From IMG/VR virus record IMGVR_UViG_2585428013_000006: 31,244 bases of DNA. The stretch is one strand, 5' to 3'. Numbering within the stretch: the first letter of the stretch is position 1; each line of letters starts with the position of its first letter. Both the position numbers and the translations under genes were made by a program. Positions 21,509 through 31,244 of this stretch are shown one piece after another. Under the pieces are notes generated by a model, which was not told where the DNA came from, did not search any database, and saw nothing but the letters and a program-made list of their open reading frames with translations. Source of the stretch: a virus (lineage: Duplodnaviria; Heunggongvirae; Uroviricota; Caudoviricetes).

Positions 21509-21649
21509 CGCACGCAGAAACCCCGCTTTTTTGTGCAAATGTGCAGACCACCGGAAGGCCCGCCCCGTCTGACCTGTGGTGATAATACGAATGCCGAAAT
21601 ATTTGTGCATTTACGTGCAATTTTTTGCAGTGTTTTTGGCGCAATAAAA

Positions 21650-21677
21650 AAGGGCTTTGTTAGCCCTTAATTTTTTA
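21650..21677. terminator. Bidirectional hairpin terminator ending the accessory operon
   Basis: AAGGGCT-TTGTT-AGCCCTT flanked by A-run and T-run. Confidence 0.65.
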
Positions 21678-22313
21678 CCTTCCCCACTCCCGATCAGGAA
21701 GTCGATCTTTGAAGGCAAGGTAATCGTAAAACTCACGAGTATGGGAAAAGATACATTCGCACATTGCAGCGCCAGCGTTTGAAAGAGCCAATTTCAACAT
21801 GCCGTCAGGTTTAGGATTGCTCACCAAATTTTCATAAACTTGAGCCTGATCTGTACCGTGGACACATAACAAAAGTGACGACTCAAAGGTAACAACTGCA
21901 TCCAGTAAACGCTGATGAATCACGGAAAGGGCCGGTTGGTTTGCAACAATTGCAGTCAAACAGCGGCGATCACCCGTCATGAAAATGGCTTCTGGGTTCT
22001 CTATGCACGAGGCAAGCAATAGCTGTTCGCCTACATCAATTCCGGGCACACTCCCCAAAAGCTCAATAAGCTGTGAGTCCTGAACTTCCGGGATATCCTG
22101 TACAGATTCAATGAAGGCTCCCACCTGCTCGTAAACAACCTGGCTACCACACTTCCTGATTGCTTTATCAGGATTTTTCGGCAGAAGCTGAAAACGAGCA
22201 GCAGGGTTAATGAAGATCTGTTCGGGGGGTTGATTAAAAACCACTGGCAGTTGTGATAACAGATTGCACTGGGCCAGCTTCAAAATGACATCATTGTCAG
22301 AAAGAACAATCAC
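21675..22313 (-). CDS. Hypothetical protein, possible PIN-like nuclease fold; second gene of the accessory pair
   Basis: 212 aa; GTG start after tandem TAA TAA; N-terminal IVLSDNDVI and later IFMTGDRR resemble PIN acidic motifs (weak, by eye); AT-richer than the phage core. Confidence 0.45.
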   Translation of the reverse strand: MIVLSDNDVILKLAQCNLLSQLPVVFNQPPEQIFINPAARFQLLPKNPDKAIRKCGSQVVYEQVGAFIESVQDIPEVQDSQLIELLGSVPGIDVGEQLLLASCIENPEAIFMTGDRRCLTAIVANQPALSVIHQRLLDAVVTFESSLLLCVHGTDQAQVYENLVSNPKPDGMLKLALSNAGAAMCECIFSHTREFYDYLAFKDRLPDREWGR

Positions 22314-22316
22314 TTA

Positions 22317-23315
22317 TTATTCCCCGATTAGATTTTCTAAAACCTTAAGATCATCTTCGTGGATATTTTCTAAATCCATCCCGCTTTTCATCATGGCCCT
22401 CACAAAATCCTGATCTGAGTCTTCACCAGCACAGAGTGCTTTAACAGCGTTAACAGCAGCACCCCAGCAGTTCTGCGCGAAACCATAATTTAAAGCGATG
22501 TGAGTCGGGTCAATGTGATTATCACTTCCAAACTTTTGAGCCGCGCGAGCCAAGCCAGGCCCATTCAACCTGCCAGCGGTAGGAACGATACGTAAAGACT
22601 TCTGCCCCGAAATGACCTGGAAAGCGAATTCGTTGGCTTCTTTCTCTACGTTGTCCGTCGAAGCATTCTCAATTTTTGCATCAATATGGCACTGCCCGTT
22701 TTCTGCGTTCAGATGCCCTCTGGCGATATGGCCTAACTCATGCGCGAGATCAAACAGCATATAGCCATATTTCTGAGGCTGAGTAAGAACAATCACCGGG
22801 CGCCCGTGACTCATTAGTGCCAGCCCGGCCATTTTTTTGGCAGCTTGAGGGAAGCATTTTAGATAAACAACAGGAATGCCAATCGAATGACAGTATGTTA
22901 CCAGGCTATCTAACGATACCCATGATTCCTTAGTAAGAATCTGGGTTCTTATCGCCAAAGGATCAAGCACTGCACTGGAATCGTAAGGGACTTTGAAATT
23001 AGACGCGACAATACCGGCCGCAGTATAGGCAACAGCAGTAGCGATATCTAAATCGTTCTCGGCTACATTTTGGCGATGTTTATATTTATGGTTTCCACCA
23101 AAATTAAAGCATACCCCTTCGCTACCATCTTTCAGGCTATCCGGGAGAATGCTAAACATACGCGCAAGGTGCAGGCACGCATACTGGCGCCCTGATGGGG
23201 TGTCAGCAAGCTTCTCATCCCACCAGTCAGGCAACAACCTGCGGATGTAAGAGAGATTAAACCCGGCCCGGCCGAATTTAGAATATATCTGACTCATCTG
23301 ATTATGGTTCGTCAT
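22317..23315 (-). CDS. ImmA/IrrE-family (M78-like) zinc metallopeptidase domain protein with unknown N-terminal region
   Basis: 332 aa; HELGH followed by EKEANEFA, the arrangement typical of ImmA/IrrE peptidases; AGGAGG SD; occupies the P2 old/tin position. Confidence 0.7.
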   Translation of the reverse strand: MTNHNQMSQIYSKFGRAGFNLSYIRRLLPDWWDEKLADTPSGRQYACLHLARMFSILPDSLKDGSEGVCFNFGGNHKYKHRQNVAENDLDIATAVAYTAAGIVASNFKVPYDSSAVLDPLAIRTQILTKESWVSLDSLVTYCHSIGIPVVYLKCFPQAAKKMAGLALMSHGRPVIVLTQPQKYGYMLFDLAHELGHIARGHLNAENGQCHIDAKIENASTDNVEKEANEFAFQVISGQKSLRIVPTAGRLNGPGLARAAQKFGSDNHIDPTHIALNYGFAQNCWGAAVNAVKALCAGEDSDQDFVRAMMKSGMDLENIHEDDLKVLENLIGE

Positions 23316-23473
23316 AAGAGCCTCCTAACTGCGTGTGTAAGCGAAATGCCATTTGTTATTAGCTTAGTTATGACACAAAAGCGCGCACACTATAAGCAGA
23401 AAACGGCGAAAGTCATAACTATTTCGATTGTGTGGAAAATGGGTAATTGCTTCTTAGAGCGGCTTATATCGGC

Positions 23474-25828
23474 TTAGTTCCGCGAAAATGCTGCTTTCAT
23501 CCTGTTCACAAGATCACTTGTTTTTTGCTTCGCCGCCATCACCTGCGACGGTAGCTTATCCAGCCCGGACGCTGCGCGGTTGCGCGATACCAGCCGCCCG
23601 TCCTGCACGGTCATAACAAGATCGCCGCACGCCACTGACGCACCGGCCATCATCGATCTGACCATTCCAGCGCTGGCATCAATCCCACGTAGCGCCAGCA
23701 GTTCACTGATCTGCTGCTCTTTGACTGATAGCCCTGCTCCCTCTTCCCGTTCCGGTGGCCGCGTTTTCCGCTTGGCGCGTACATCGTCACTTAATCGCTG
23801 CGCCAGTTCCCGTTTTTCTTGCCGTGAAAGAGCATCAAAATTCACCGTCTCGCCCACTTCGTGATCGGCATGTTCAAGACCGTCTGCACTTGTCGCGGGA
23901 TCCCGCGTACAGTTATTGACAGAACTCCGAGGGGCGGCGTTGCCGCCTGAAAAACCAACGTCAACGGCCACACCGTCAACGCTCTGGCGCTTCGGCACGA
24001 TTTTGTATTGAGTGGTGCGGGTGAAGATCAAAGAGTCATTGCCCGTAATCGGGCAGTAAATACCGGTGATTCGCTGGACGTTATCGCCGTAGGCGTTGCC
24101 GTTCTCAGTGGTTTCATAATTCAGACGAATGCGCAGCTTATCGCGCTCAACCAATGGGCCACCCTGGGCTAATACGTAGTTATCCCATTCGCCACCGTTA
24201 GCGGCCTGCCGGGCGGTTTCCAGTTCAGGGTGTAGCACCAGTTCGCGATCGCCCAGGCGGCGAAGTTCGCGATATACCGTGACCGGCGCACCGCCGATCT
24301 GCTGAAACTGACGAATAGCCCAGCGCGATGCCCACGCGCTAACGCGGAGTGACATTTCTTTCAGGTCTTCCCCGGTTTCGTCGTCCTTCTCACCATCCAG
24401 CGCGAAGCCGTCGATATTCTTCGAAATGTATTTCGCTATGTAGCCGGTTGCGCTGCCGTGGGCATCGTCGATCGGCACAACCTGAAAGCGGTTTTCCTGC
24501 GCTCCCGGTTCGTTGCCGTCTTCTTTCAGGGCATATTTACGGAAGATTTCGCGCGCCTGCTTGACGCATTCCGGGCGCATAAAAAGAAGTAAATGCCAGT
24601 GTGGCGTTGCATCGTGGTGCGGTTCGACCACGCGGAAACCAAAGACGCGGATCCCTTTTCTCTTCCACGCTGCGCGGGTTCTCGCCCAGACTTTGCAAAG
24701 ATATTGCTGCGTCTCGCGCGGCGACGCGCCACAGTATTTATTATTGCGGCGCCCGTTATGCTGCATGGAGTGGTAACGGGAAGGTGCTGTTAGCGTGTAG
24801 AAGTCACCGGCCAGCCCTTCCAGCTTCGCCAAATCTTCAAATCCGCGCATTCTCGTCATGAGTTCGCGGCGACGGTTGGCCGGATTGGCAACACTACCGG
24901 CGACTTTATCGATCAGTGAAATGCGTTCGCCCGTGTCCTGGTCTTCCAGTTCCATAGCCTTAAGGTATTCACGGTTAGCCTTTTTCTGGGCCAGCCATTC
25001 CGTGAGGCACGGGGCGCTACTGTATGGGGAAGATTTTTTCTGGACGTATCCCGCTGCGATCATCAAATGCTCACGCCACCTGGCATGGATACGGCGCAGG
25101 CGGTTTAACCACCACTGCGGTGACTCAAGGCGAAGAACCGCGCGTAACGCGTCCTCCGCTTCCAGTTCTTCATTGCAATACGCCGTCCAGCCGGGGATCG
25201 GCGTTTTCAGATGCACCGCCAGCGACGCAATACGGCCATAGCCCGAAAGCGCCGCGAACTCAGGATCTCCGGTGCGTGCCAACTGGTGATCGGACTCGCG
25301 TATAAACTCGCTCGTAAAGATATCGGCAAGCGTATAAGCCAGTCTTTTTAACTCTTTCTTCCCTGCCCAGAGCATACGGAAAAGCTGATCGCGGATTGGT
25401 AGCAGAATGCCGGGCATCACAGTGTCAGGCTGGTAAACACTGTTCACGCTATCAATACGCGTTAATACGTGGCGCTCAAAGGTATTAACCAGCCAGTGAT
25501 CTGCCGCTTTACGGTCTTTCGCGTCCAGTGCATCCAGCTTCGCGGCAAAGTGGCGGCGGATATACTGCGGAAGGGAAGCCAGACGGCGACGCAGCAGCTT
25601 GCTGCGCTCCGGCTTTTCGTCCTCCGCTACCAGTTCACTGAACGCAATATGCTTGCGGGTGCCGTCCGGCGTGAGATAGTCGAAACCATCCAGCCCCGGC
25701 GCTACATCAACGCCAATCGGCTGGTATGGTTTGTTCCCGCCATAAGCGTAAGGGATAGCATTATCAGTGCTACCCGGATACGATGGAGGTGGAGAAGGGG
25801 CGCGACGGCCACGGGTTGCCGTGGTCAT
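23474..25828 (-). CDS. A: Replication initiation endonuclease A (rolling-circle)
   Basis: 784 aa; P2 gpA-like size and position; ATGA overlap with the upstream methylase gene. Confidence 0.9.
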   Translation of the reverse strand: MTTATRGRRAPSPPPSYPGSTDNAIPYAYGGNKPYQPIGVDVAPGLDGFDYLTPDGTRKHIAFSELVAEDEKPERSKLLRRRLASLPQYIRRHFAAKLDALDAKDRKAADHWLVNTFERHVLTRIDSVNSVYQPDTVMPGILLPIRDQLFRMLWAGKKELKRLAYTLADIFTSEFIRESDHQLARTGDPEFAALSGYGRIASLAVHLKTPIPGWTAYCNEELEAEDALRAVLRLESPQWWLNRLRRIHARWREHLMIAAGYVQKKSSPYSSAPCLTEWLAQKKANREYLKAMELEDQDTGERISLIDKVAGSVANPANRRRELMTRMRGFEDLAKLEGLAGDFYTLTAPSRYHSMQHNGRRNNKYCGASPRETQQYLCKVWARTRAAWKRKGIRVFGFRVVEPHHDATPHWHLLLFMRPECVKQAREIFRKYALKEDGNEPGAQENRFQVVPIDDAHGSATGYIAKYISKNIDGFALDGEKDDETGEDLKEMSLRVSAWASRWAIRQFQQIGGAPVTVYRELRRLGDRELVLHPELETARQAANGGEWDNYVLAQGGPLVERDKLRIRLNYETTENGNAYGDNVQRITGIYCPITGNDSLIFTRTTQYKIVPKRQSVDGVAVDVGFSGGNAAPRSSVNNCTRDPATSADGLEHADHEVGETVNFDALSRQEKRELAQRLSDDVRAKRKTRPPEREEGAGLSVKEQQISELLALRGIDASAGMVRSMMAGASVACGDLVMTVQDGRLVSRNRAASGLDKLPSQVMAAKQKTSDLVNRMKAAFSRN

Positions 25829-26739
25829 TGCGCGATCTCCATGTAGGCTTTTAAGAAAGTAGCGGCTGCATAGATATTTACGGCGTTTCCGCTGGCGCGT
25901 AGTTTTCCCACTCTGGAGGGAACCCCATCAACCAGAGGCTTAAGGCCGGGTTTAACTGGCCTCCACTTTCCATCCCGGCAGAAAAGCCAGTCAGCAGATC
26001 CCCAGAATCCGTTAACCGGGCCGGGCCTGCTATCTGCGCTGTCACATCCAGCGTATCCGTTGACAGCTTCCCGTGCCGCATCCTTCCCCCCTGATACCCG
26101 CCCTTTCCATCCCTCGCCGCAGGGGTGGGCCAGCCCGCAAGACAAGCAAAGTCCTGTAAGTTCGACTGCCGACCAGCCAGCTTCCTGGCGATCACCTTCT
26201 CGGCATCCTGATAAGCGTTCTTCGTATTGCTCGCGGTTGGAGTCGGCCAGCCAGTAAGTACGCTCCCGGATGTGCGGCGCACCGACGCCCGCAGACGGAA
26301 ACGCCGACGCCCCGAAGGCATAGCCCAAACTTTCCATGTCAGTTTGTACAAGGTCGATCCAGACTTCTGCATCTTTGCTTGAAGACTGTTCGCCAAATAT
26401 AACGACAGGGCGTTGCTGGCCTGCAAGCCAATGAACGGCGGGCCATAGGTGCCGCTCATCATCAAATTGTTTTCCTTCGCCTGCCTGGCTGAAAGGTTGG
26501 CATGGGCAACTTGCTGTCCATACTGGGCGGTCGTCCGGCCATCCTGCAACGCGCAAAGCACGGGGCCAGCCTCCAAAACCTGCAAACAGGTGGATTTGAG
26601 AGAATCCTTTAATGTCATTTGGGGTTACATCCTCAACGGAACGGGTATCAACAACGCCGGAAGCGATAAGCCCGGCATCAATGAGGTTGCGCAGGTATTG
26701 CGCGGCAAAGGGATCGATTTCGTTGTAGTAGGCGGTCAC
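25825..26739 (-). CDS. DNA (cytosine-5) methyltransferase, orphan
   Basis: Motif I FAGFGG, motif IV PCQPFS, RER, C-terminal GNAV; GTG start with GGAGGGG SD; no restriction partner seen. Confidence 0.8.
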
Positions 26740-26930
26740 TGCTGCCCCTCCGCTTTGCGGTATTTCGTGATAAGCGGATCTACAATTCCGTCGAGAGTGG
26801 CCTTTATCGCCCGCGCCTCTTCCTGCCCATTCATCACGCCCACGTGCGTGGCTAACGCCAACGCTATCAACTTGATTTCGTTCAGTGCGTGCAGCGCGCC
26901 TTGATTAAATTCATGTGAGTTAGAAGGCAT
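26736..26930 (-). CDS. Hypothetical small protein
   Basis: 64 aa from ATG 26930 (GGAG RBS), packed between the Dam and C5-methylase genes. Confidence 0.4.
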   Translation of the reverse strand: MPSNSHEFNQGALHALNEIKLIALALATHVGVMNGQEEARAIKATLDGIVDPLITKYRKAEGQQ

Positions 26931-27873
26931 CGGCGTGATCTCCAAAGTCGGCGGAATAGCCAGCGCATGGGCCGCAGTCTGGGCAATAGCCACCACCATG
27001 ACGCCCGCAGCAGTCGCAGACAGGCAGCACGCCGATCACTTCTTTGGCCTTCTGGCGGTTTTCTTTGTCGGTGCTGACGGAACGTTGCACGCTGATTTCG
27101 TGCATCTTGAAGGGCTGATAAATCGCGCGGGTGGCTTCGGTGTCGCTGTTGGAAATGACGACCTTCACGCCATGCTTACGGTTAACTTCCAGCAGTGCCT
27201 GGACTAACTGGCGGTGGTTGTCTTCCGTGAATGGTTCGGTGTGGTATTGGGTAAAATCGGCTGTTTTGCTTTCAGGCAGGTAAGGCGGATCGCAGTAAAC
27301 GAGAACATCGCCACCCGTGACGACCTGTAGAGAACGCTGGAACGGCGCGCAAAGAAATATTGCCTTTGTATCGTTGGCCTTTTCGGCAAAGAGGCGGATT
27401 TCATTTTCAGGAAAGTAGACGCTCTTATACTTGCCAAACGGCACGTTAAAGCCGCTCTTCCGGCTGTATCGGCATAAGCCGTTATAACCGTGACGATTCA
27501 GATACAGGAATTGAGCAGCGCGCATAATGCACGCCATTTCAGCGCCATAACGCAACCCACCGCTTTTTACCGTACCCACCTGCTTATTGAACGCGGCGCG
27601 GACTTCGTTGTACCCCTGCGGGCTGTTCTTGCTGTTGAACAGTTCGCGGGCCGCATCGATCACTAAGTCCGGGTAACGGGTGACTTCCCGATACAGGTTA
27701 ATAAGATCCGGGTTGATATCAGCCAGCACATAGCGGCGGTACTCAGTCGCCAGAAATACCGATGCGCCACCTACGAACGGTTCGATCAGGCAGTCGGCTG
27801 TAGGAAGGTGCGGCAGCAGGTCAGGAAGGACACGGGTTTTACCCCCTGCCCATTTGATGAACGGGCGGATCAT
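26920..27873 (-). CDS. dam: Dam-family DNA adenine (N6) methyltransferase with Cys-rich C-terminal extension
   Basis: KWAGGK, EPF.GG.SVFL, DPPY; colinear with E. coli Dam; extra C-terminal tail CDCCGRHGGGYCPDCGPC. Confidence 0.9.
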   Translation of the reverse strand: MIRPFIKWAGGKTRVLPDLLPHLPTADCLIEPFVGGASVFLATEYRRYVLADINPDLINLYREVTRYPDLVIDAARELFNSKNSPQGYNEVRAAFNKQVGTVKSGGLRYGAEMACIMRAAQFLYLNRHGYNGLCRYSRKSGFNVPFGKYKSVYFPENEIRLFAEKANDTKAIFLCAPFQRSLQVVTGGDVLVYCDPPYLPESKTADFTQYHTEPFTEDNHRQLVQALLEVNRKHGVKVVISNSDTEATRAIYQPFKMHEISVQRSVSTDKENRQKAKEVIGVLPVCDCCGRHGGGYCPDCGPCAGYSADFGDHADAF

Positions 27874-27874
27874 T

Positions 27875-28087
27875 TTACAGGACTCCGTAAGGGGAAGATG
27901 GAACAGCCGGACGCTGCAACGCCGTGGTAAGGCGCTGGCGCATGTCGTCGATAAAGCAGGAAACAGAGGGATCGTCAGAAGAAAGGGTTAACTCACCATC
28001 GCGGCGGGTTTTAATCGTCAGCCCTTCACGCTCAACAGCAGGTAAGAGAACGTGCAGGATGAAGTTATATTGATCGCGTTTAGTCAT
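27875..28087 (-). CDS. Hypothetical small protein
   Basis: 70 aa; ATG with GAGG RBS; 1 nt before the Dam start. Confidence 0.4.
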   Translation of the reverse strand: MTKRDQYNFILHVLLPAVEREGLTIKTRRDGELTLSSDDPSVSCFIDDMRQRLTTALQRPAVPSSPYGVL

Positions 28088-28129
28088 GATTCGAAGCCTC
28101 AGAAATTGCCGGGTCTCCCCGGCAATCTG

Positions 28130-28312
28130 TTACTGGTGATCCGCTGATTGGTTAGCTGACTTGAGGGCAGGCCAGACAAGGAGAAGAAGAGCGCCAACGA
28201 AGAAGGCGTCGCCAATCACCGAAAGCAGGTAGCTGGTGAAATCCACTGCTACGACCATGAAGGCCAACAGCAGGGCCAGCGCCGGACGTAGTGAATCCAG
28301 CACGCGCAGCAT
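28130..28312 (-). CDS. Small membrane protein with two predicted helices, co-translated with the TerB-like gene
   Basis: 60 aa, mostly hydrophobic; ATGA overlap with the upstream stop; hairpin at 28105-28126 downstream. Confidence 0.45.
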   Translation of the reverse strand: MLRVLDSLRPALALLLAFMVVAVDFTSYLLSVIGDAFFVGALLLLVWPALKSANQSADHQ

Positions 28313-28746
28313 CAGAGATAATCCTCAACACGCAGCCCCAGACGGCGCCCGACCTCTTCCAGCACCTTCTGTTCTTCTGGTTCGATCTGGCCGTCCGCTT
28401 CGGCGATAGTCAGCATGTTGACGAAGACTTCTTCGGCTTCTTTCGGATCGTTTTTGATGTCGTCTATTTCGCGCAAAATGTTCATGCGGCCAACGCGGAA
28501 GCCAGCTTCAAGCTGTTCCGTATAGCGGTTGATGGTGGATGTAATTTCATTGCCGAAATGCGCAAGGCGCGGGTTAGAGCGGATAAGCTGATCCAGCTTG
28601 CTGGTTTCTTCTTTTTCGATCTCGCCATCGGCGGCAGATACCAAAAGACAACCGCCGACAATAGCTTCCATAAGATCGCGATTTTCCACTTTCTTAAGTT
28701 CAACTTTTGCCGCTGCTACTTTTTTTCCAAACAGTTTATTAAACAT
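28312..28746 (-). CDS. TerB-family (tellurite-resistance TerB-like) domain protein
   Basis: 144 aa from ATG 28746 (AAGGA RBS); two acidic repeats, SAADGEIEKEE and AEADGQIEPEEQ, typical of TerB domains. Confidence 0.65.
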   Translation of the reverse strand: MFNKLFGKKVAAAKVELKKVENRDLMEAIVGGCLLVSAADGEIEKEETSKLDQLIRSNPRLAHFGNEITSTINRYTEQLEAGFRVGRMNILREIDDIKNDPKEAEEVFVNMLTIAEADGQIEPEEQKVLEEVGRRLGLRVEDYL

Positions 28747-28840
28747 GCTATTTATCCTTTTTAGGATGAGTGAAAGCGCCATCACTTAATTAAGTGACGA
28801 CAGTGAAGACTGTTTTTTAATTAATATTTAACTGGCGTTG

Positions 28841-29071
28841 TTAGCCGATTAAATTTCTCAAAGCATTAACAAAGTTAAAAAGTAATCCTTTGTTTATCTT
28901 CTTCGTATAAACAAAGGGCTTACTCATTCCCTTAATAAATTGAACCTTGCTAGGCTCAGGCTTAAAGAATTGCCCGTCTGGTGTTTCCAGCCAGCCGCGT
29001 GAGTTCTTGAAGTGTGTAACCTGGCATCCATGCTTAAGCAGGCTTGCCAGTGATGGGCCTTCATCGTGCAT
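28841..29071 (-). CDS. Hypothetical small protein
   Basis: About 76 aa from ATG 29071; the track start 29101 is TTG; AT-rich. Confidence 0.35.
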   Translation of the reverse strand: MHDEGPSLASLLKHGCQVTHFKNSRGWLETPDGQFFKPEPSKVQFIKGMSKPFVYTKKINKGLLFNFVNALRNLIG

Positions 29072-29312
29072 TGCTGCCCCCTTGCTTATACATCTGATCA
29101 ACCGTGCGCATGGCTTCCGCTAAAGCAAAGTCACGCCCGTAATAATCGCCATTACTGGAAATACGATAAGAGTGCTTAAACGTAAATGGATTACGCGGGC
29201 ACTTTTGAATCGTGAAGCCACGATATAAATATGAGTGACGACTTAACTGTATTAATTGCACAGCCACAAAATCCCCCTCACATTCCCAATTTAAGCAATT
29301 CACCATCAACAT
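29061..29312 (-). CDS. Hypothetical small protein
   Basis: 83 aa; overlaps neighbours at both ends; AT-rich. Confidence 0.35.
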   Translation of the reverse strand: MLMVNCLNWECEGDFVAVQLIQLSRHSYLYRGFTIQKCPRNPFTFKHSYRISSNGDYYGRDFALAEAMRTVDQMYKQGGSNAR

Positions 29313-29837: not shown

Positions 29838-29884
29838 CTCATGGTAGAGATTACCACCCTTAAGGAGAATGTTATGGTAGAGAT
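29838..29884. promoter_or_regulatory. Immunity switch region: direct repeats ATGGTAGAGAT (29841-29851 and 29874-29884), candidate C operator overlapping the early promoter
   Basis: Exact 11-bp direct repeat spaced 33 bp at the C start; P2 C binds direct-repeat operators around Pe. Confidence 0.45.
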
Positions 29885-30194
29885 CCCTACCCCGTCAAGC
29901 GGCGTGGGTGAAAAAATCAGAGCTATCAGGGATGCGGAAGGGTTAACAAGGCAGCAATTCTTTGAATTAACTGGAATACCTGCTGGCACGCAGAAGTATT
30001 ACGAGACAGGAAGAGTGGAGAGTATTGGTAGCGATATCTTGCTTAAGATCACTCAGCATTCACGTTTCGCAAAATACACGCTCTGGCTTATGACTGATAA
30101 GACCGCCCCTCAAGCTGGTCAAATCGCACCGGCCCTCGCACACATTGGGCCAGAGTCAACTGGATCAGACCGCTCCGAGAAACAAACTGGTTAA
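29874..30194 (+). CDS. C: Immunity repressor C (HTH)
   Basis: 106 aa from ATG 29874 with AAGGAG RBS; HTH-like segment GEKIRAIRDAEGLTRQQFFELTGIPAGT; between cox and int. Confidence 0.8.
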   Translation: MVEIPTPSSGVGEKIRAIRDAEGLTRQQFFELTGIPAGTQKYYETGRVESIGSDILLKITQHSRFAKYTLWLMTDKTAPQAGQIAPALAHIGPESTGSDRSEKQTG

Positions 30195-30263: not shown

Positions 30264-31244
30264 ATGTCGATTAAGAAGCTCGAAGGTGGTCAATATGAAG
30301 TGGACGTATGGCCGCGCGGACGTAACGGAAAACGTATCCGCAGGCGATTTGAGAAGAAACAAGAAGCAGTTCTTTTTGAGCGTTATGTATTAGCCAACGC
30401 CGACAAAAAAGAATGGCTGGGCGCGAGCGTTGACCGCCGCACCTTAAGCGAGTTGTTAGATACCTGGTGGCTGCTATATGGACAGACTCAGGAAAATGGC
30501 GAGATTGAAAAGCGGCACCTGAATAAAACAATCAAGGCGCTTGGTGATCCAGCCGTTAACCGACTGAACAAGCGAATGATTGCACAGCACCGAAGCCAAC
30601 GGCTGGAAGACGGTATCAGCGCAGCAACGATCAACCGGGATATTTACCGTTTGTCCGGGATGTTCAGCACGTTGATAAAGCTGGAAGAGTTCAGAAAGGA
30701 AAACCCCTGTAAGGGTCTGGAACCACTGAAAGAAGCGCCGCCAGCTATGACTTATCTCGCCAAATCAGAGATCAGCAAATTGCTGGATACTCTGACCGGC
30801 GACGATCGACGTGTAGCACTGCTATGCCTCAGCACTGGCGCACGCTGGGGTGAAGGGAGCACGCTGCGAGGTGAGCAGGTTAATCACGGGCGTGTGACGT
30901 TCCTTAAGACCAAAAATGGGAAAAAGCGCACGGTTCCGATATCGGAAGAACTGGAGAAAGAGATCAAGACCAGCGACACCGGGCCACTGTTCAAAGTTGA
31001 CTATGAAAACTTCTGCGAACGGCTCAGGTTGGTTAAGCCTGACTTACCACGCGGGCAGGCCACACACGTGCTTAGACATACTTTTGCAAGCTGGTTCATG
31101 ATGAACGGGGGGAACATTATTGCGTTACAGCAAATTCTGGGGCACGCCAGCATACAACAGACGATGGTTTATGCTCACCTTGCACCTGATTACCTGCAAC
31201 ACGCAGTAACGTTAAACCCTCTTGGCGGCGGGCTGACGGTGTGA
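30264..31244 (+). CDS. int: Tyrosine integrase
   Basis: 326 aa; C-terminal H-x-x-R (LRHTFAS) and catalytic Tyr (MVYAHL); GGAGGG RBS; stop is the last codon of the window. Confidence 0.9.
   Translation: MSIKKLEGGQYEVDVWPRGRNGKRIRRRFEKKQEAVLFERYVLANADKKEWLGASVDRRTLSELLDTWWLLYGQTQENGEIEKRHLNKTIKALGDPAVNRLNKRMIAQHRSQRLEDGISAATINRDIYRLSGMFSTLIKLEEFRKENPCKGLEPLKEAPPAMTYLAKSEISKLLDTLTGDDRRVALLCLSTGARWGEGSTLRGEQVNHGRVTFLKTKNGKKRTVPISEELEKEIKTSDTGPLFKVDYENFCERLRLVKPDLPRGQATHVLRHTFASWFMMNGGNIIALQQILGHASIQQTMVYAHLAPDYLQHAVTLNPLGGGLTV

Follow-up and report, generated by a model that had tools for sequence, protein, structure and literature searches.

tciA-tciB, a TerB gene and an overlapping small membrane-protein gene in the early operon of a P2/186-like prophage, as a candidate lytic-cycle module

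Here, we analyze a pair of genes, tciA and tciB, in a 31,244-nt stretch of DNA (the window, below) that constitutes a P2/186-like prophage. The pair lies between fil and orf70/dam in the early lytic operon on the Cox side, in the gene order cox, orf, DUF4761, fil, tciA, tciB, orf70, dam, C5-MTase, and gpA, and all genes flanking it have the same direction (minus strand). Directly upstream, fil (28841–29071, minus strand) encodes a phage 186 Fil-family cell-division inhibitor (Pfam Phage_186_Fil, E = 1.5e-22). Downstream, orf70 (27875–28087, minus strand; PHROG 21140) is the next gene of the operon and is followed by dam (26920–27873, minus strand). The locus is tciA-tciB, an accessory two-gene phage module first named in P1; the naming is backed by the annotated tciA, tciB, and tciC of P1, by homologs in P7, and by the annotated tciA and tciB carried by JLK-2012. 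The pair in the window is nothing out of the ordinary for P2-like prophages, in which such cargo has already been annotated.

tciA (28312–28746, minus strand; ATG at 28746–28744, TGA at 28314–28312) encodes a protein of 144 residues and is preceded by an AAGGA Shine-Dalgarno sequence at 28759–28755. A longer ORF with a GTG start at 28785 was rejected because homologs and the RefSeq annotation begin at the methionine of MF(N/G)KLFGKK. A preliminary description, made from the sequence alone, had called the product TerB-like, and profile comparison confirms this assignment: residues 27–143 align to positions 2–113 of the 118 positions of the Pfam TerB profile (PF05099) with 54 bits against a gathering cutoff of 24.4 bits. 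TciA also matches PHROG 632 and is related to solved TerB or TerB-like structures by both homology and fold. The two acidic repeats that had been noted are present as AADGEIEKEE (residues 38–47; 28606–28635, minus strand), read from the sequence, and AEADGQIEPEEQ (residues 115–126; 28369–28404, minus strand), and the DNA encoding them forms a direct repeat (D1) of 81% identity, of which the second motif is the reference copy. In a 14-sequence alignment including TciA of P1 and of lambdoid phages, D40, G41, E47, D118, G119, and E125 are invariant; among 27 aligned sequences from closer relatives, D40 is conserved in at least 90% and the other five residues are invariant. These data show that TciA has the fold of TerB and carries two D-G...E acidic motifs that do not vary. 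The N terminus of TciA is basic (net charge +4 to +5) and weakly amphipathic; a strong amphipathic membrane-targeting helix was considered here and is not claimed because the hydrophobic moment (muH) is only ~0.3.

tciB (28130–28312, minus strand; ATG at 28312–28310, TAA at 28132–28130) encodes a small hydrophobic protein of 60 residues that belongs to the DUF3927 family (Pfam, 33 bits against a cutoff of 25 bits; PHROG 1470 "TciB-like," E = 4.9e-19). While tblastn with the 60-residue protein gave no match in the phage collection, perhaps because a low-complexity filter removes so hydrophobic a query, homologs were recovered by profile. Their conserved core reads LLAFMVVAVDFTSYLLSxxGDxFFVGAL, and in the core codons 16–47 there are 1313 synonymous compared to 459 nonsynonymous pairwise codon differences. 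tciA and tciB are, as these analyses show, real genes under purifying selection, and what had been described as a tiny hydrophobic protein is the product of a real, conserved membrane-protein gene. The hydropathy profile of TciB has a single unbroken hydrophobic stretch of 42 residues (residues ~10–51) with a dip at V-D-F-T-S, and basic residues are found at both ends (R3, R9, and K51). The two-helix architecture proposed earlier is one possibility: hydropathy is compatible with two short spans about a VDFTS turn, whereas AlphaFold2 draws TciB alone as one continuous helix from residue 2 to 58 and predicts no helical hairpin. A single long helix predicted for the protein alone does not, in turn, settle its topology. 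D24 and D35 of TciB are invariant and, in a cation-path reading described below, would lie within the membrane.

The two genes meet in a junction (28310–28326, minus strand) in which a GAGGA Shine-Dalgarno sequence (28326–28322) lies within the 3' end of tciA, ahead of a TGATG stop/start (28314–28310). An overlap had been predicted and exists, but not as a four-base ATGA: in the sequence cTGATGc, the stop and the start have only one base (28312) in common. This arrangement is the rule among homologs, with an overlap of 1 nt or 4 nt in 41 of the 46 distinct pairs of the DUF3927 type and in every one of the 23 pairs of the Pseudomonas type; relative to the TerB stop, the small gene is offset by 0 or −3 nearly always. 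Two apparent TerB-DUF3927 fusions were artefacts, one (P0066, 171 aa) with frameshifted ends and the other (P0166, 176 aa) a histidine-phosphatase/garbage/DUF3927 chimera, and no natural fusion was found among 52 DUF3927 clusters; thus, there is no Rosetta-stone evidence for an interaction between TciA and TciB. Moreover, TciA of the window is 91% identical to TerB of P7/D6 and 33% identical to TciA of P1 mod749, and the two TciB proteins of P7 and P1 are 37–41% identical to that of the window. P7 pairs the window-like TciA with a P1-like TciB (37%). Alleles of the two genes are thus freely shuffled, which argues against tight allele-specific contacts between TciA and TciB.

An AT-rich region with a palindrome upstream of the pair had also been noted, and both are present. 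The spacer between fil and tciA (28747–28840, minus strand) has a G+C content of 34% compared to 54% for the window. A perfect 16-nt palindrome, TCACTTAATTAAGTGA, lies at 28782–28797, is unique in the window (0.04 matches expected by chance), and forms, together with TGGCGCTTTCACTCATCC, an element (28766–28797, minus strand) that is conserved in P2-like relatives with the cassette; at locus L064, the palindrome has a symmetric double change (TCATTTAATTAAATGA). This conserved palindrome could be a regulatory site. The 3' part of the element, from the second palindrome arm (TTAAGTG...) to ...CACTCAT, also precedes orf70 in SEN5. Because SEN5 has no cassette, the part covered by this match, i.e., the right palindrome half and ~20 nt 3' of the palindrome, is backbone rather than cassette. 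A consensus scan, which may miss a promoter in the spacer or inside fil if it is weak, non-consensus, or dependent on an activator, found no sigma-70-like site with at least 8 of 12 matches in the 364 nt upstream of tciA (28747–29110). The same scan does detect a candidate early lytic promoter upstream of cox (TTGACG-18-TAACAT; 29869–29898, minus strand), which is the sole sigma-70-like site between the repressor gene and cox and, by sequence-based prediction, the likely source of tciAB transcription.

Several lines of evidence bear on the idea, put forward in the preliminary description, that tciAB is an independently expressed moron that could function in superinfection exclusion, stress sensing, or membrane-targeted abortive infection; if the pair is active in the lysogen and protects it, colicin resistance would be a further possible mode. 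First, the pair has the distribution of a moron. In SEN4, SEN5, and phiT5282H, both flanks match the window while ~675 nt, and with them the cassette, are missing, and the homology between SEN5 and the window restarts at 28090; the cassette is, therefore, accessory, as some collinear P2-like phages carry it and others do not. P1-like phage-plasmids have eight hypervariable regions, of which tciABC is one, and about half of the members of one subgroup have lost it (PMC9603915). In Pectobacterium prophages, a direct repeat of 47 nt lies on both sides of the cassette; repeats of this kind were looked for around the cassette in the window and none were found. Second, the integrase-primase interval has been described as a minor defense hotspot of P2-like phages (bioRxiv 10.64898/2026.02.27.708500); however, the canonical hotspot between gpA and the portal gene (21572–23485 in the window) holds cargo other than tciAB. 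Third, classical morons (lambdoid bor/lom/stx-type) share with tciAB the presence/absence between collinear genomes and a terminal hairpin, but they have their own promoter and terminator. By contrast, no promoter was detected for tciAB, the AT-rich palindrome region is backbone also found in SEN5, all neighbors are co-directional within the operon, and the G+C content (0.49 for tciA and 0.57 for tciB) shows no contrast with the window (0.54) or the early operon (0.52). Fourth, the setting is that of lytic operons in three phage lineages. In P2-like phages, the order fil-tciA-tciB-dam is conserved in 36 loci, and tciA keeps its slot after fil even where Fil is only 48–73% identical; in lambdoid relatives, the cassette lies downstream of Q in the Q-S moron slot; and in P1 and P7, it belongs to the ban operon, which is C1-repressed according to GenBank feature notes. 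Fifth, PADLOC gave no credible defense-system match for tciA, tciB, or their neighbors: the best hits for TciA were PDC-S48 (E = 0.003 over 36 residues) and PtuA (E = 0.04), and TciB and the neighboring genes gave nothing. Altogether, the presence/absence pattern of a moron is borne out, whereas independent expression is not, and we regard this explanation as unlikely, even though the plasmid ter operon reportedly causes phage inhibition and colicin resistance (Whelan 1995).

The hairpin that had been noted downstream of the pair is real. Directly 3' of tciB, the GC-rich stem-loop UUGCCGGG-GAGA-CCCGGCAA with the tail UUUCUGAGG (28106–28125, minus strand) has, with its extension, a free energy of −20.7 kcal/mol (z = −4.25 compared to shuffled sequences) and precedes the ribosome-binding site of orf70 and its ATG at 28087. 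A terminator scan did not call it because its U-tract (UUUCUGAGG) is poor, and Rfam gave nothing at the gathering threshold across the window, with chance-level matches only near the cassette. In most other contexts of the cassette, a GC-rich hairpin of different sequence likewise follows the small gene. The hairpin could be an efficient terminator with which the cassette ends a transcription unit, and if so, the downstream genes, which include essential ones, need their own promoter. Because dam and gpA lie downstream, we rather read it as a partial terminator or mRNA-stabilizing end that would not bring transcription to a full stop.

The position of the cassette directly downstream of fil in 36 of the 36 P2-like loci examined also raises the possibility that TciA and TciB cooperate with the neighboring Fil protein, blocking division or remodeling the envelope at an early stage of the lytic cycle. 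A dicF-like region lies in the same operon of P1, and both the P1 annotation and the paper on the P1vir transcriptome group tciA, tciB, and tciC with icd and kilA, genes of division control. However, lambdoid, P1-like, N4-like, and jumbo phages carry the pair without fil, and SEN4 and SEN5 have fil without the pair. The name Tci includes "inhibition of cell division"; this naming was derived from homology with the R478 ter cluster alone and not from experiment. We consider a joint function with Fil very unlikely.

The cassette is known from P1, P7/D6, lambdoid prophages, many P2-like prophages, and some virulent phages. Across a survey sample of 131 loci with 75 distinct TerB sequences, a gene for a small membrane protein follows the TerB gene for 71 of these sequences (~95%) and abuts or overlaps the TerB stop in nearly all; the four others are mostly at contig ends or truncated. 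The partner is DUF3927 in enterobacterial phages (46 of the 75) and an unrelated single-TM protein of ~67 residues in Pseudomonas phages (23), with two pairs having another TM protein. In Vibrio phages, the neighbor ~70 nt downstream is a member of the Na_Ca_ex (Na+/Ca2+-exchanger) family (E = 4e-28). These data show that the partner family of phage TerB is swappable. TerB itself is 65–76% identical between Escherichia and Pseudomonas elements. Carriers of the pair include the virulent N4-like phage FSL SP-058, the Erwinia jumbo phage Caitlin, and Pseudomonas phage AF, and the occurrence of such pairs in strictly virulent phages argues against a purely lysogen-protective role.

The P1-type cassette is among the closest known systems. 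As in the window, a TerB gene of ~141–144 codons is followed by an overlapping DUF3927 gene of 54–60 codons, TciB contains a VDFTS...SD core, and the cassette is accessory and variable within its phage family. It differs in that P1 also has tciC, for which tblastn gave matches in P1-like loci only, whereas in the window tciB is followed by the hairpin and orf70. Moreover, P1 is a plasmid prophage whose cassette is flanked by tRNA genes and follows the C1-controlled ban operator, while the prophage in the window is integrated and carries the cassette after fil. In P1, where plaques form without the need for these genes, tciA, tciB, and tciC were classed as non-essential by CRISPRi (PMC10695390), and RNA-seq of P1vir detected their transcripts at 10–20 min of lytic infection (bioRxiv 10.64898/2025.12.28.696737).

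TciA shares the domain family, the fold, and the duplicated acidic motif with TerB of the terZABCDE operon (Klebsiella KP-TerB, PDB 2jxu); because a profile match of 55 bits is the sole measure of this relationship, we regard the kinship as remote. In the ter operon, TerB is presumed to work with the membrane protein TerC. However, TerC is a multi-pass protein, while the partner in the window is a peptide of 60 residues, and the ter operon contains the other ter genes, whereas TciA of the window is an orphan. This difference in gene content bears on the view, suggested by the family name and by database labels that read "tellurite resistance," that tciAB is a true tellurite-resistance determinant by which the prophage brings about lysogenic conversion. 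A prophage of EC09 is 92–98% identical to the window across 86% of its length and has 0 ter genes among its 45 annotated features; the window segments without a counterpart in EC09 encode a tail fiber, an M78 peptidase with a protein of unknown function, and a C5 methyltransferase. terZ, terA, terC, terD, and terE are, on this evidence, absent, and TerB alone is insufficient in characterized ter operons according to a view quoted in PMC8421299. A tellurite-resistance determinant is, thus, largely refuted by gene content and is extremely improbable; a tellurite phenotype is not expected from phage tciAB.

TerB domains are also found in the defense systems Shango, Bunzi, and Dionysus, for which a role in membrane surveillance has been proposed, and in Dionysus, the domains are described as "amphitropic" and are paired with TM proteins (bioRxiv 10.1101/2025.09.30.679545). 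In all three, i.e., with SngA of Shango, BnzA of Bunzi, and the TM protein DinA, the TerB protein DinB, and the pore-former DinC of Dionysus, TerB is found beside one or more membrane proteins, as in tciAB, and the presence of TerB domains in defense systems lends some weight to a protective moron. However, the further partners (helicase, ATPase, and pore-forming toxin) are absent from tciAB, which does not reside in host defense islands but belongs to lytic operons of phages and also occurs in virulent phages. The PADLOC 2.0 models of Shango and Bunzi did not match TciA or TciB; Dionysus is newer than PADLOC 2.0. The presence of TerB in several defense systems, together with the early lytic timing in temperate phages, the occurrence in virulent phages, which fits anti-defense genes, and the unusually high identity of TerB across distant hosts, would alternatively be in line with counter-defense, in which phage TerB is a decoy or dominant-negative form acting against host TerB systems (ter "Phi," Shango, Bunzi, or Dionysus), or in which the pair shields the membrane against pore-forming Abi effectors. 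We found no literature report of such a role, and a simple decoy leaves the obligatory membrane partner unexplained; we therefore give this explanation little credence.

We favor, with modest confidence, a model in which tciAB is a translationally coupled early-operon module of the lytic cycle, bringing a cation-binding TerB domain to the inner membrane. We suggest that tciAB transcripts arise as part of the early operon upon induction or infection, with no separate promoter serving the pair in the lysogen, and that TciA and TciB are made in a roughly fixed proportion by translational coupling. TciB would insert into the inner membrane and serve as partner or anchor of TciA, in that way rebuilding non-covalently, by analogy, the layout of a TM segment plus a TerB domain in DjlA and the association of TerB with TerC. 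TciA, in turn, may bind a divalent cation via its paired acidic motifs, as their conservation would suggest. The TerB acidic dyad is reportedly metal-binding, as is said in work by Anantharaman, Iyer & Aravind from 2012 and in the ter-operon literature, from which the analogies to DjlA and TerC also come. Cation-bound TciA could then alter or protect the ion or energy status of the inner membrane in the infected cell. Candidates for the functional outcome are resistance to agents that damage the membrane, e.g., colicins or a superinfecting phage, and a contribution to the lytic program.

A bolder and quite unlikely extension of this model is that TerB with an interchangeable small membrane partner represents a widespread phage "membrane-cation module" acting in the lytic growth of temperate and virulent phages alike, in which TciB oligomers would form or modulate a path for cations and a Ca2+/Mn2+-binding TerB would gate it. 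The partners in such a module would be DUF3927 in enterobacterial phages, the single-TM, Cys-containing peptide in Pseudomonas phages, and the CaCA Na+/Ca2+ exchanger in Vibrio phages. If true, the module would tune membrane potential or divalent-cation levels, favoring replication or blunting pore-forming defenses and superinfection.

TerB genes are among the commoner "moron/auxiliary" annotations in phages and are routinely labeled "tellurite resistance." Our findings show that the TerB gene is hardly ever alone, that its partner is replaced by unrelated families between host groups, and that the module is found in lytic-cycle operons and in virulent phages. The constancy of a partner, its replacement, and the lytic or virulent setting shift attention away from lysogenic conversion and toward the role that a membrane-tethered TerB plays for the infecting phage. 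The pair also offers a compact two-gene system for studying the poorly understood TerB domain, which is present in several anti-phage systems.

The locus is almost certainly a tciA-tciB cassette, and TciA has a TerB fold with a conserved acidic dyad. tciA is read from the sequence as a 144-aa ORF on the minus strand (ATG at 28746, stop TGA at 28314-28312) with an AAGGA ribosome-binding site 8 nt upstream of its ATG. Several lines of evidence bear out the TerB assignment made in the preliminary description. First, TciA scores 54 bits against Pfam TerB (threshold 24.4) and matches PHROG 632 with E = 4.9e-62. Second, a profile of TciA and its homologues matches the Klebsiella TerB structure 2jxu over nearly its full length (E = 7.8e-14), and the AlphaFold2 model of TciA has six helices with a mean pLDDT of 93.3. 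Third, the two acidic repeats that had been noticed are present, AADGEIEKEE at residues 38-47 and AEADGQIEPEEQ at residues 115-126; their DNA forms a direct repeat of 81% identity, both have D-G...E residues that do not vary across 14 aligned sequences, the P1 and lambdoid TciA proteins among them, and D40 is nearly invariant in a set of 27 closer relatives. Every TerB-domain feature that could be tested was found in TciA, and RefSeq labels the window-type protein in E. coli 'tellurite resistance TerB family protein'. With no other ter genes nearby and a gene content unlike that of a ter operon, tciAB is very unlikely to be a tellurite-resistance determinant.

tciB, likewise read from the sequence, is a 60-aa ORF on the minus strand (ATG 28312-28310, TAA 28132-28130) with GAGGA 9 nt upstream of its ATG, within tciA. 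The junction is cTGATGc, in which one base is common to stop and start, rather than the ATGA overlap described earlier. tciB is a real, constrained gene: among 17 distinct 60-codon alleles, synonymous pairwise codon differences outnumber nonsynonymous ones in core codons 16-47 (1313 versus 459); the termini are free to vary. TciB scores 33 bits against Pfam DUF3927 (threshold 25), matches PHROG 1470 ('TciB-like inhibition of cell division or resistance to colicin') and is labelled 'DUF3927 family protein' by RefSeq in its window-type form in E. coli. By hydropathy, a single unbroken hydrophobic stretch covers residues ~10-51 and dips at the polar V-D-F-T-S; basic residues lie at both ends. This distribution is compatible with an N-in/C-in hairpin that turns at VDFTS, whereas AlphaFold2 gives one helix spanning residues 2-58. 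Thus, the proposed two-helix membrane protein stands as a hydrophobic protein with the two-helix topology unproven. With these two corrections, to overlap type and topology, the initial observation was correct and describes more than a chance feature.

In a protein search of annotated phage genomes, TciA is 91% identical to 'TerB/TciA' of P7, D6 and one P1 isolate. P1 and P7 carry an overlapping tciB (DUF3927) and tciC after tciA, and the lambdoid phages JLK-2012 and Evi carry a TerB/DUF3927 pair downstream of Q. Both core features of the P1 module, the TerB gene and the overlapping DUF3927 gene, are present in the window, but tciC and the ban-operon setting are not. Compared with TerB, P1 tciAB, ter, defence systems and morons, the locus is therefore a P2-like early-operon copy of a known, annotated cassette. 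The TciA of P1 itself (L004) is only 33% identical to that of the window, and P7 (L003) pairs its window-like TciA with a TciB of the P1 kind, nearly identical to the P1 protein and 37% identical to that of the window; these shuffled alleles indicate recombination within the cassette. In P1, tciA, tciB and tciC were non-essential in a CRISPRi screen (PMC10695390), and comparative work describes tciABC as a hypervariable region that roughly half of one P1 subgroup has lost (PMC9603915). Other papers mention a phage terB gene only in passing, and our literature search found no experimental function for TciA or TciB.

The TerB gene is almost always followed by a gene for a small membrane protein. 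We compared 131 loci with TerB relatives (47 from one-genome-per-species bacterial contigs, 80 from IMG/VR, and the annotated phages). Of the 75 distinct TerB sequences, a DUF3927 gene follows 46; 23, from Pseudomonas and relatives, are followed by an unrelated protein of ~67 aa, and two by other small TM ORFs; the four without a partner comprise two contig ends, one decayed partner and one truncated TerB. In nearly every pair, the TerB stop and the partner start overlap by 1 or 4 nt. The ~67-aa partner matches no Pfam family and combines a single N-terminal TM segment with a conserved tail, C..YGYQT(D/E)RxT(R/K)(Y/F)AxxVGCM...W.PRxE.R..Q. This two-cysteine tail (C.YYGYQTDRETRYAAFVGCM...W.PR.E.R..Q) recurs in Pseudomonas prophages and phage AF (L012-L034, L129-L132 and L137), always with an ATGA overlap with the TerB gene. 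In at least two Pseudomonas prophages, a phage-encoded CsrA/RsmA homologue follows the pair and a hairpin (L022, 4701-4901, PF02599, E = 1.1e-25; L130, recognised by sequence). An exhaustive DUF3927 profile search gave only 52 clusters, all of short stand-alone proteins; two apparent fusions were rejected as assembly or frameshift artefacts.

The pair is not confined to temperate phages, since the N4-like virulent Salmonella phage FSL SP-058 has TerB and DUF3927, Erwinia jumbo phage Caitlin has TerB and a 59-aa hydrophobic peptide annotated 'TciB-like' with a weak DUF3927 match, and in Pseudomonas phage AF a copy of the Pseudomonas-type partner is present, though unannotated. Phage Cygsa01 has TerB and no partner. 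In a large group of Vibrio phages, TerB is followed by a 360-aa membrane protein of the Na+/Ca2+-exchanger family (PF01699, E = 4e-28), which hints that phage TerB proteins may work with cation-handling membrane proteins. In Vibrio phage D505 (L139) this gene, annotated only as hypothetical, lies at 1807-2889, about 70 nt downstream of TerB; in other Vibrio phage records, TerB matches at almost the same coordinates.

The window, a P2/186-like prophage of Senquatrovirus type, has an integrase gene at 30264-31244, a plus-strand gene for an HTH repressor-like protein and, on the minus strand, the order cox, a small orf, DUF4761, fil, tciA, tciB, orf70, dam, C5 methyltransferase and gpA. The two methyltransferase genes lie in tandem (25825-27873, minus), a D12-class Dam (26920-27873) and a C5 cytosine methyltransferase (25825-26739), with an 87-aa ORF across their junction (26736-26999, minus). 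E. coli EC09 has a near-identical prophage between fieF and cpxP; there, Dam is annotated as a pseudogene and the C5 segment is replaced. SEN4 and SEN5 (Salmonella) and phiT5282H (Enterobacter) match both flanks and lack the pair. Pairwise alignment places the right boundary of the insertion at 28090, 3 nt upstream of the orf70 start codon, and the inserted unit spans about 28091-28765, comprising the ribosome-binding site, tciA, tciB and a hairpin. The order fil, tciA, tciB, (orf70), dam holds in all 36 P2-like loci examined, even where Fil is 48-73% and integrase 40-52% identical; the pair is thus a long-standing, variably retained member of the early operon rather than a recent arrival.

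As had been noted, the pair is preceded by an AT-rich region with a palindrome: the spacer upstream of tciA is 94 nt of 34% G+C (54% for the window), with a perfect 16-nt palindrome at 28782-28797 (minus), its only copy in the window. In the cassette-less SEN5, the sequence just upstream of orf70 aligns with window 28794-28766, i.e., the right half of the palindrome and TTTCACTCATCC, and TCACTT[A/T]ATTAAGTGATGGCGC[A/T]TTCACTCA also precedes tciA in divergent P2-like prophages. The upstream feature is thus backbone and not cassette in at least its tciA-proximal part, which begins with the second arm of the palindrome. The full element 3' of fil (palindrome TCACTT[A/T]ATTAAGTGA plus TGGCGC[A/T]TTCACTCA; window 28766-28797, minus) is retained in P2-like prophages carrying tciAB (L001, 3309-3337; L010, L064-L066 and L107-L127), and SEN5 keeps only its 3' part, TTAAGTGG...CCACTCAT. 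In L064, a symmetric double change, TCATTTAATTAAATGA, preserves the palindrome or hairpin. The element may serve as an operator, form an RNA hairpin or be a site of recombination.

The hairpin reported downstream of the pair is also confirmed: UUGCCGGG-GAGA-CCCGGCAA directly follows tciB (28106-28125, minus; -20.7 kcal/mol, z = -4.25), then UUUCUGAGG and the next gene start at 28087. Because its U-tract is poor, a terminator scan of the window did not call it, and dam and gpA lie downstream, we read it as a partial terminator or mRNA-end stabiliser. In most contexts other than P1, the small gene is likewise followed by a GC-rich stem-loop, whose sequence varies. The tciAB cassette of Pectobacterium prophages is flanked on both sides by a hairpin element of 47 nt, CCCGGCACCTATTCGCAACCG...CGGTTACCAATAGG, in copies 94-98% identical and 691 nt apart (L007, 3910-3956 and 4601-4647; L112, 3713-3759 and 4404-4450), suggesting cassette gain or loss by recombination between repeated intergenic hairpins; the window has no such repeat around tciAB. 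Upstream of tciA, lambdoid contexts have a leader of about 125 nt that is conserved and highly structured (L005, 2375-2503; L044-L049, 3875-4003; L138, 715-843), with a consensus fold of -38 kcal/mol and 37 pairs, only three of them with compensatory changes. A 2026 preprint reports that TerB is conserved next to the prophage sRNAs PasA/PasC.

The preliminary description suggested that the pair may be an independently expressed moron, with superinfection exclusion, stress sensing or membrane-targeted abortive infection as possible functions; this amounts to a defence moron expressed in the lysogen. The presence/absence polymorphism, the stable 3' hairpin and the associations of TerB with defence favour this reading, which is not supported by the remaining evidence. 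A sigma-70 consensus scan found the early promoter that is expected before cox (TTGACG-18-TAACAT, 29898-29869, minus) and no site in the 364 nt upstream of tciA, even relaxed to 8/12 matches. Base composition is unremarkable against the window, the upstream element is of backbone origin, the cassette has no significant match to the PADLOC models of TerB-containing systems, and TerB pairs occur in virulent phages. Moreover, the canonical gpA-portal hotspot (21572-23485), which differs from that of the otherwise near-identical EC09 prophage, carries other cargo, a 332-aa M78/IrrE-like peptidase (22317-23315, minus; PF06114; PADLOC PD-Lambda-2_B, E = 8.8e-10; RmrA- and CapP-like as well) together with a 212-aa protein that matches no family (21675-22313, minus); this cargo is a likelier lysogen-expressed defence candidate. 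Finally, the cassette lies in lytic operons: in P1/P7 behind the C1-controlled ban operator (GenBank feature notes), and in lambdoid phages behind Q. Three phage lineages thus place it where lytic development transcribes it, and lytic-operon expression of tciAB is probable. In P1vir, tciA/B/C are transcribed in lytic infection (bioRxiv 10.64898/2025.12.28.696737).

The small hydrophobic partner is constrained, its overlap or abutment with the TerB gene is near-universal, it is replaced by unrelated membrane proteins, and the cassette, placed in lytic operons, is dispensable in P1. TerB-TerC and DjlA are precedents for a TerB domain linked to the membrane. Because of these precedents, the Vibrio exchanger neighbour and the reported membrane association of TerB domains (bioRxiv 10.1101/2025.09.30.679545), we suggest a model, to which we give an even chance, in which TciA and TciB would be made together early after induction or infection, TciB would insert in the inner membrane as the partner of TciA, and TciA would act at the cytoplasmic face, its acidic motifs binding cations. 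The output could be to shield the membrane of the infected cell from colicins, superinfection or pore-forming defences, or to tune ion and energy status for the phage. A counter-defence role is a less likely candidate, with which the timing and the unusually high conservation of TerB fit. A cell-division role alongside Fil is another; the case for it consists of adjacency to fil and a name, 'Tci', given by homology.

Three features, all seen in related loci and not special to this window, go beyond existing annotation: phage TerB is coupled almost obligatorily to a small membrane protein, this partner is swapped from one host group to another, and the pair is placed in the lytic cycle.
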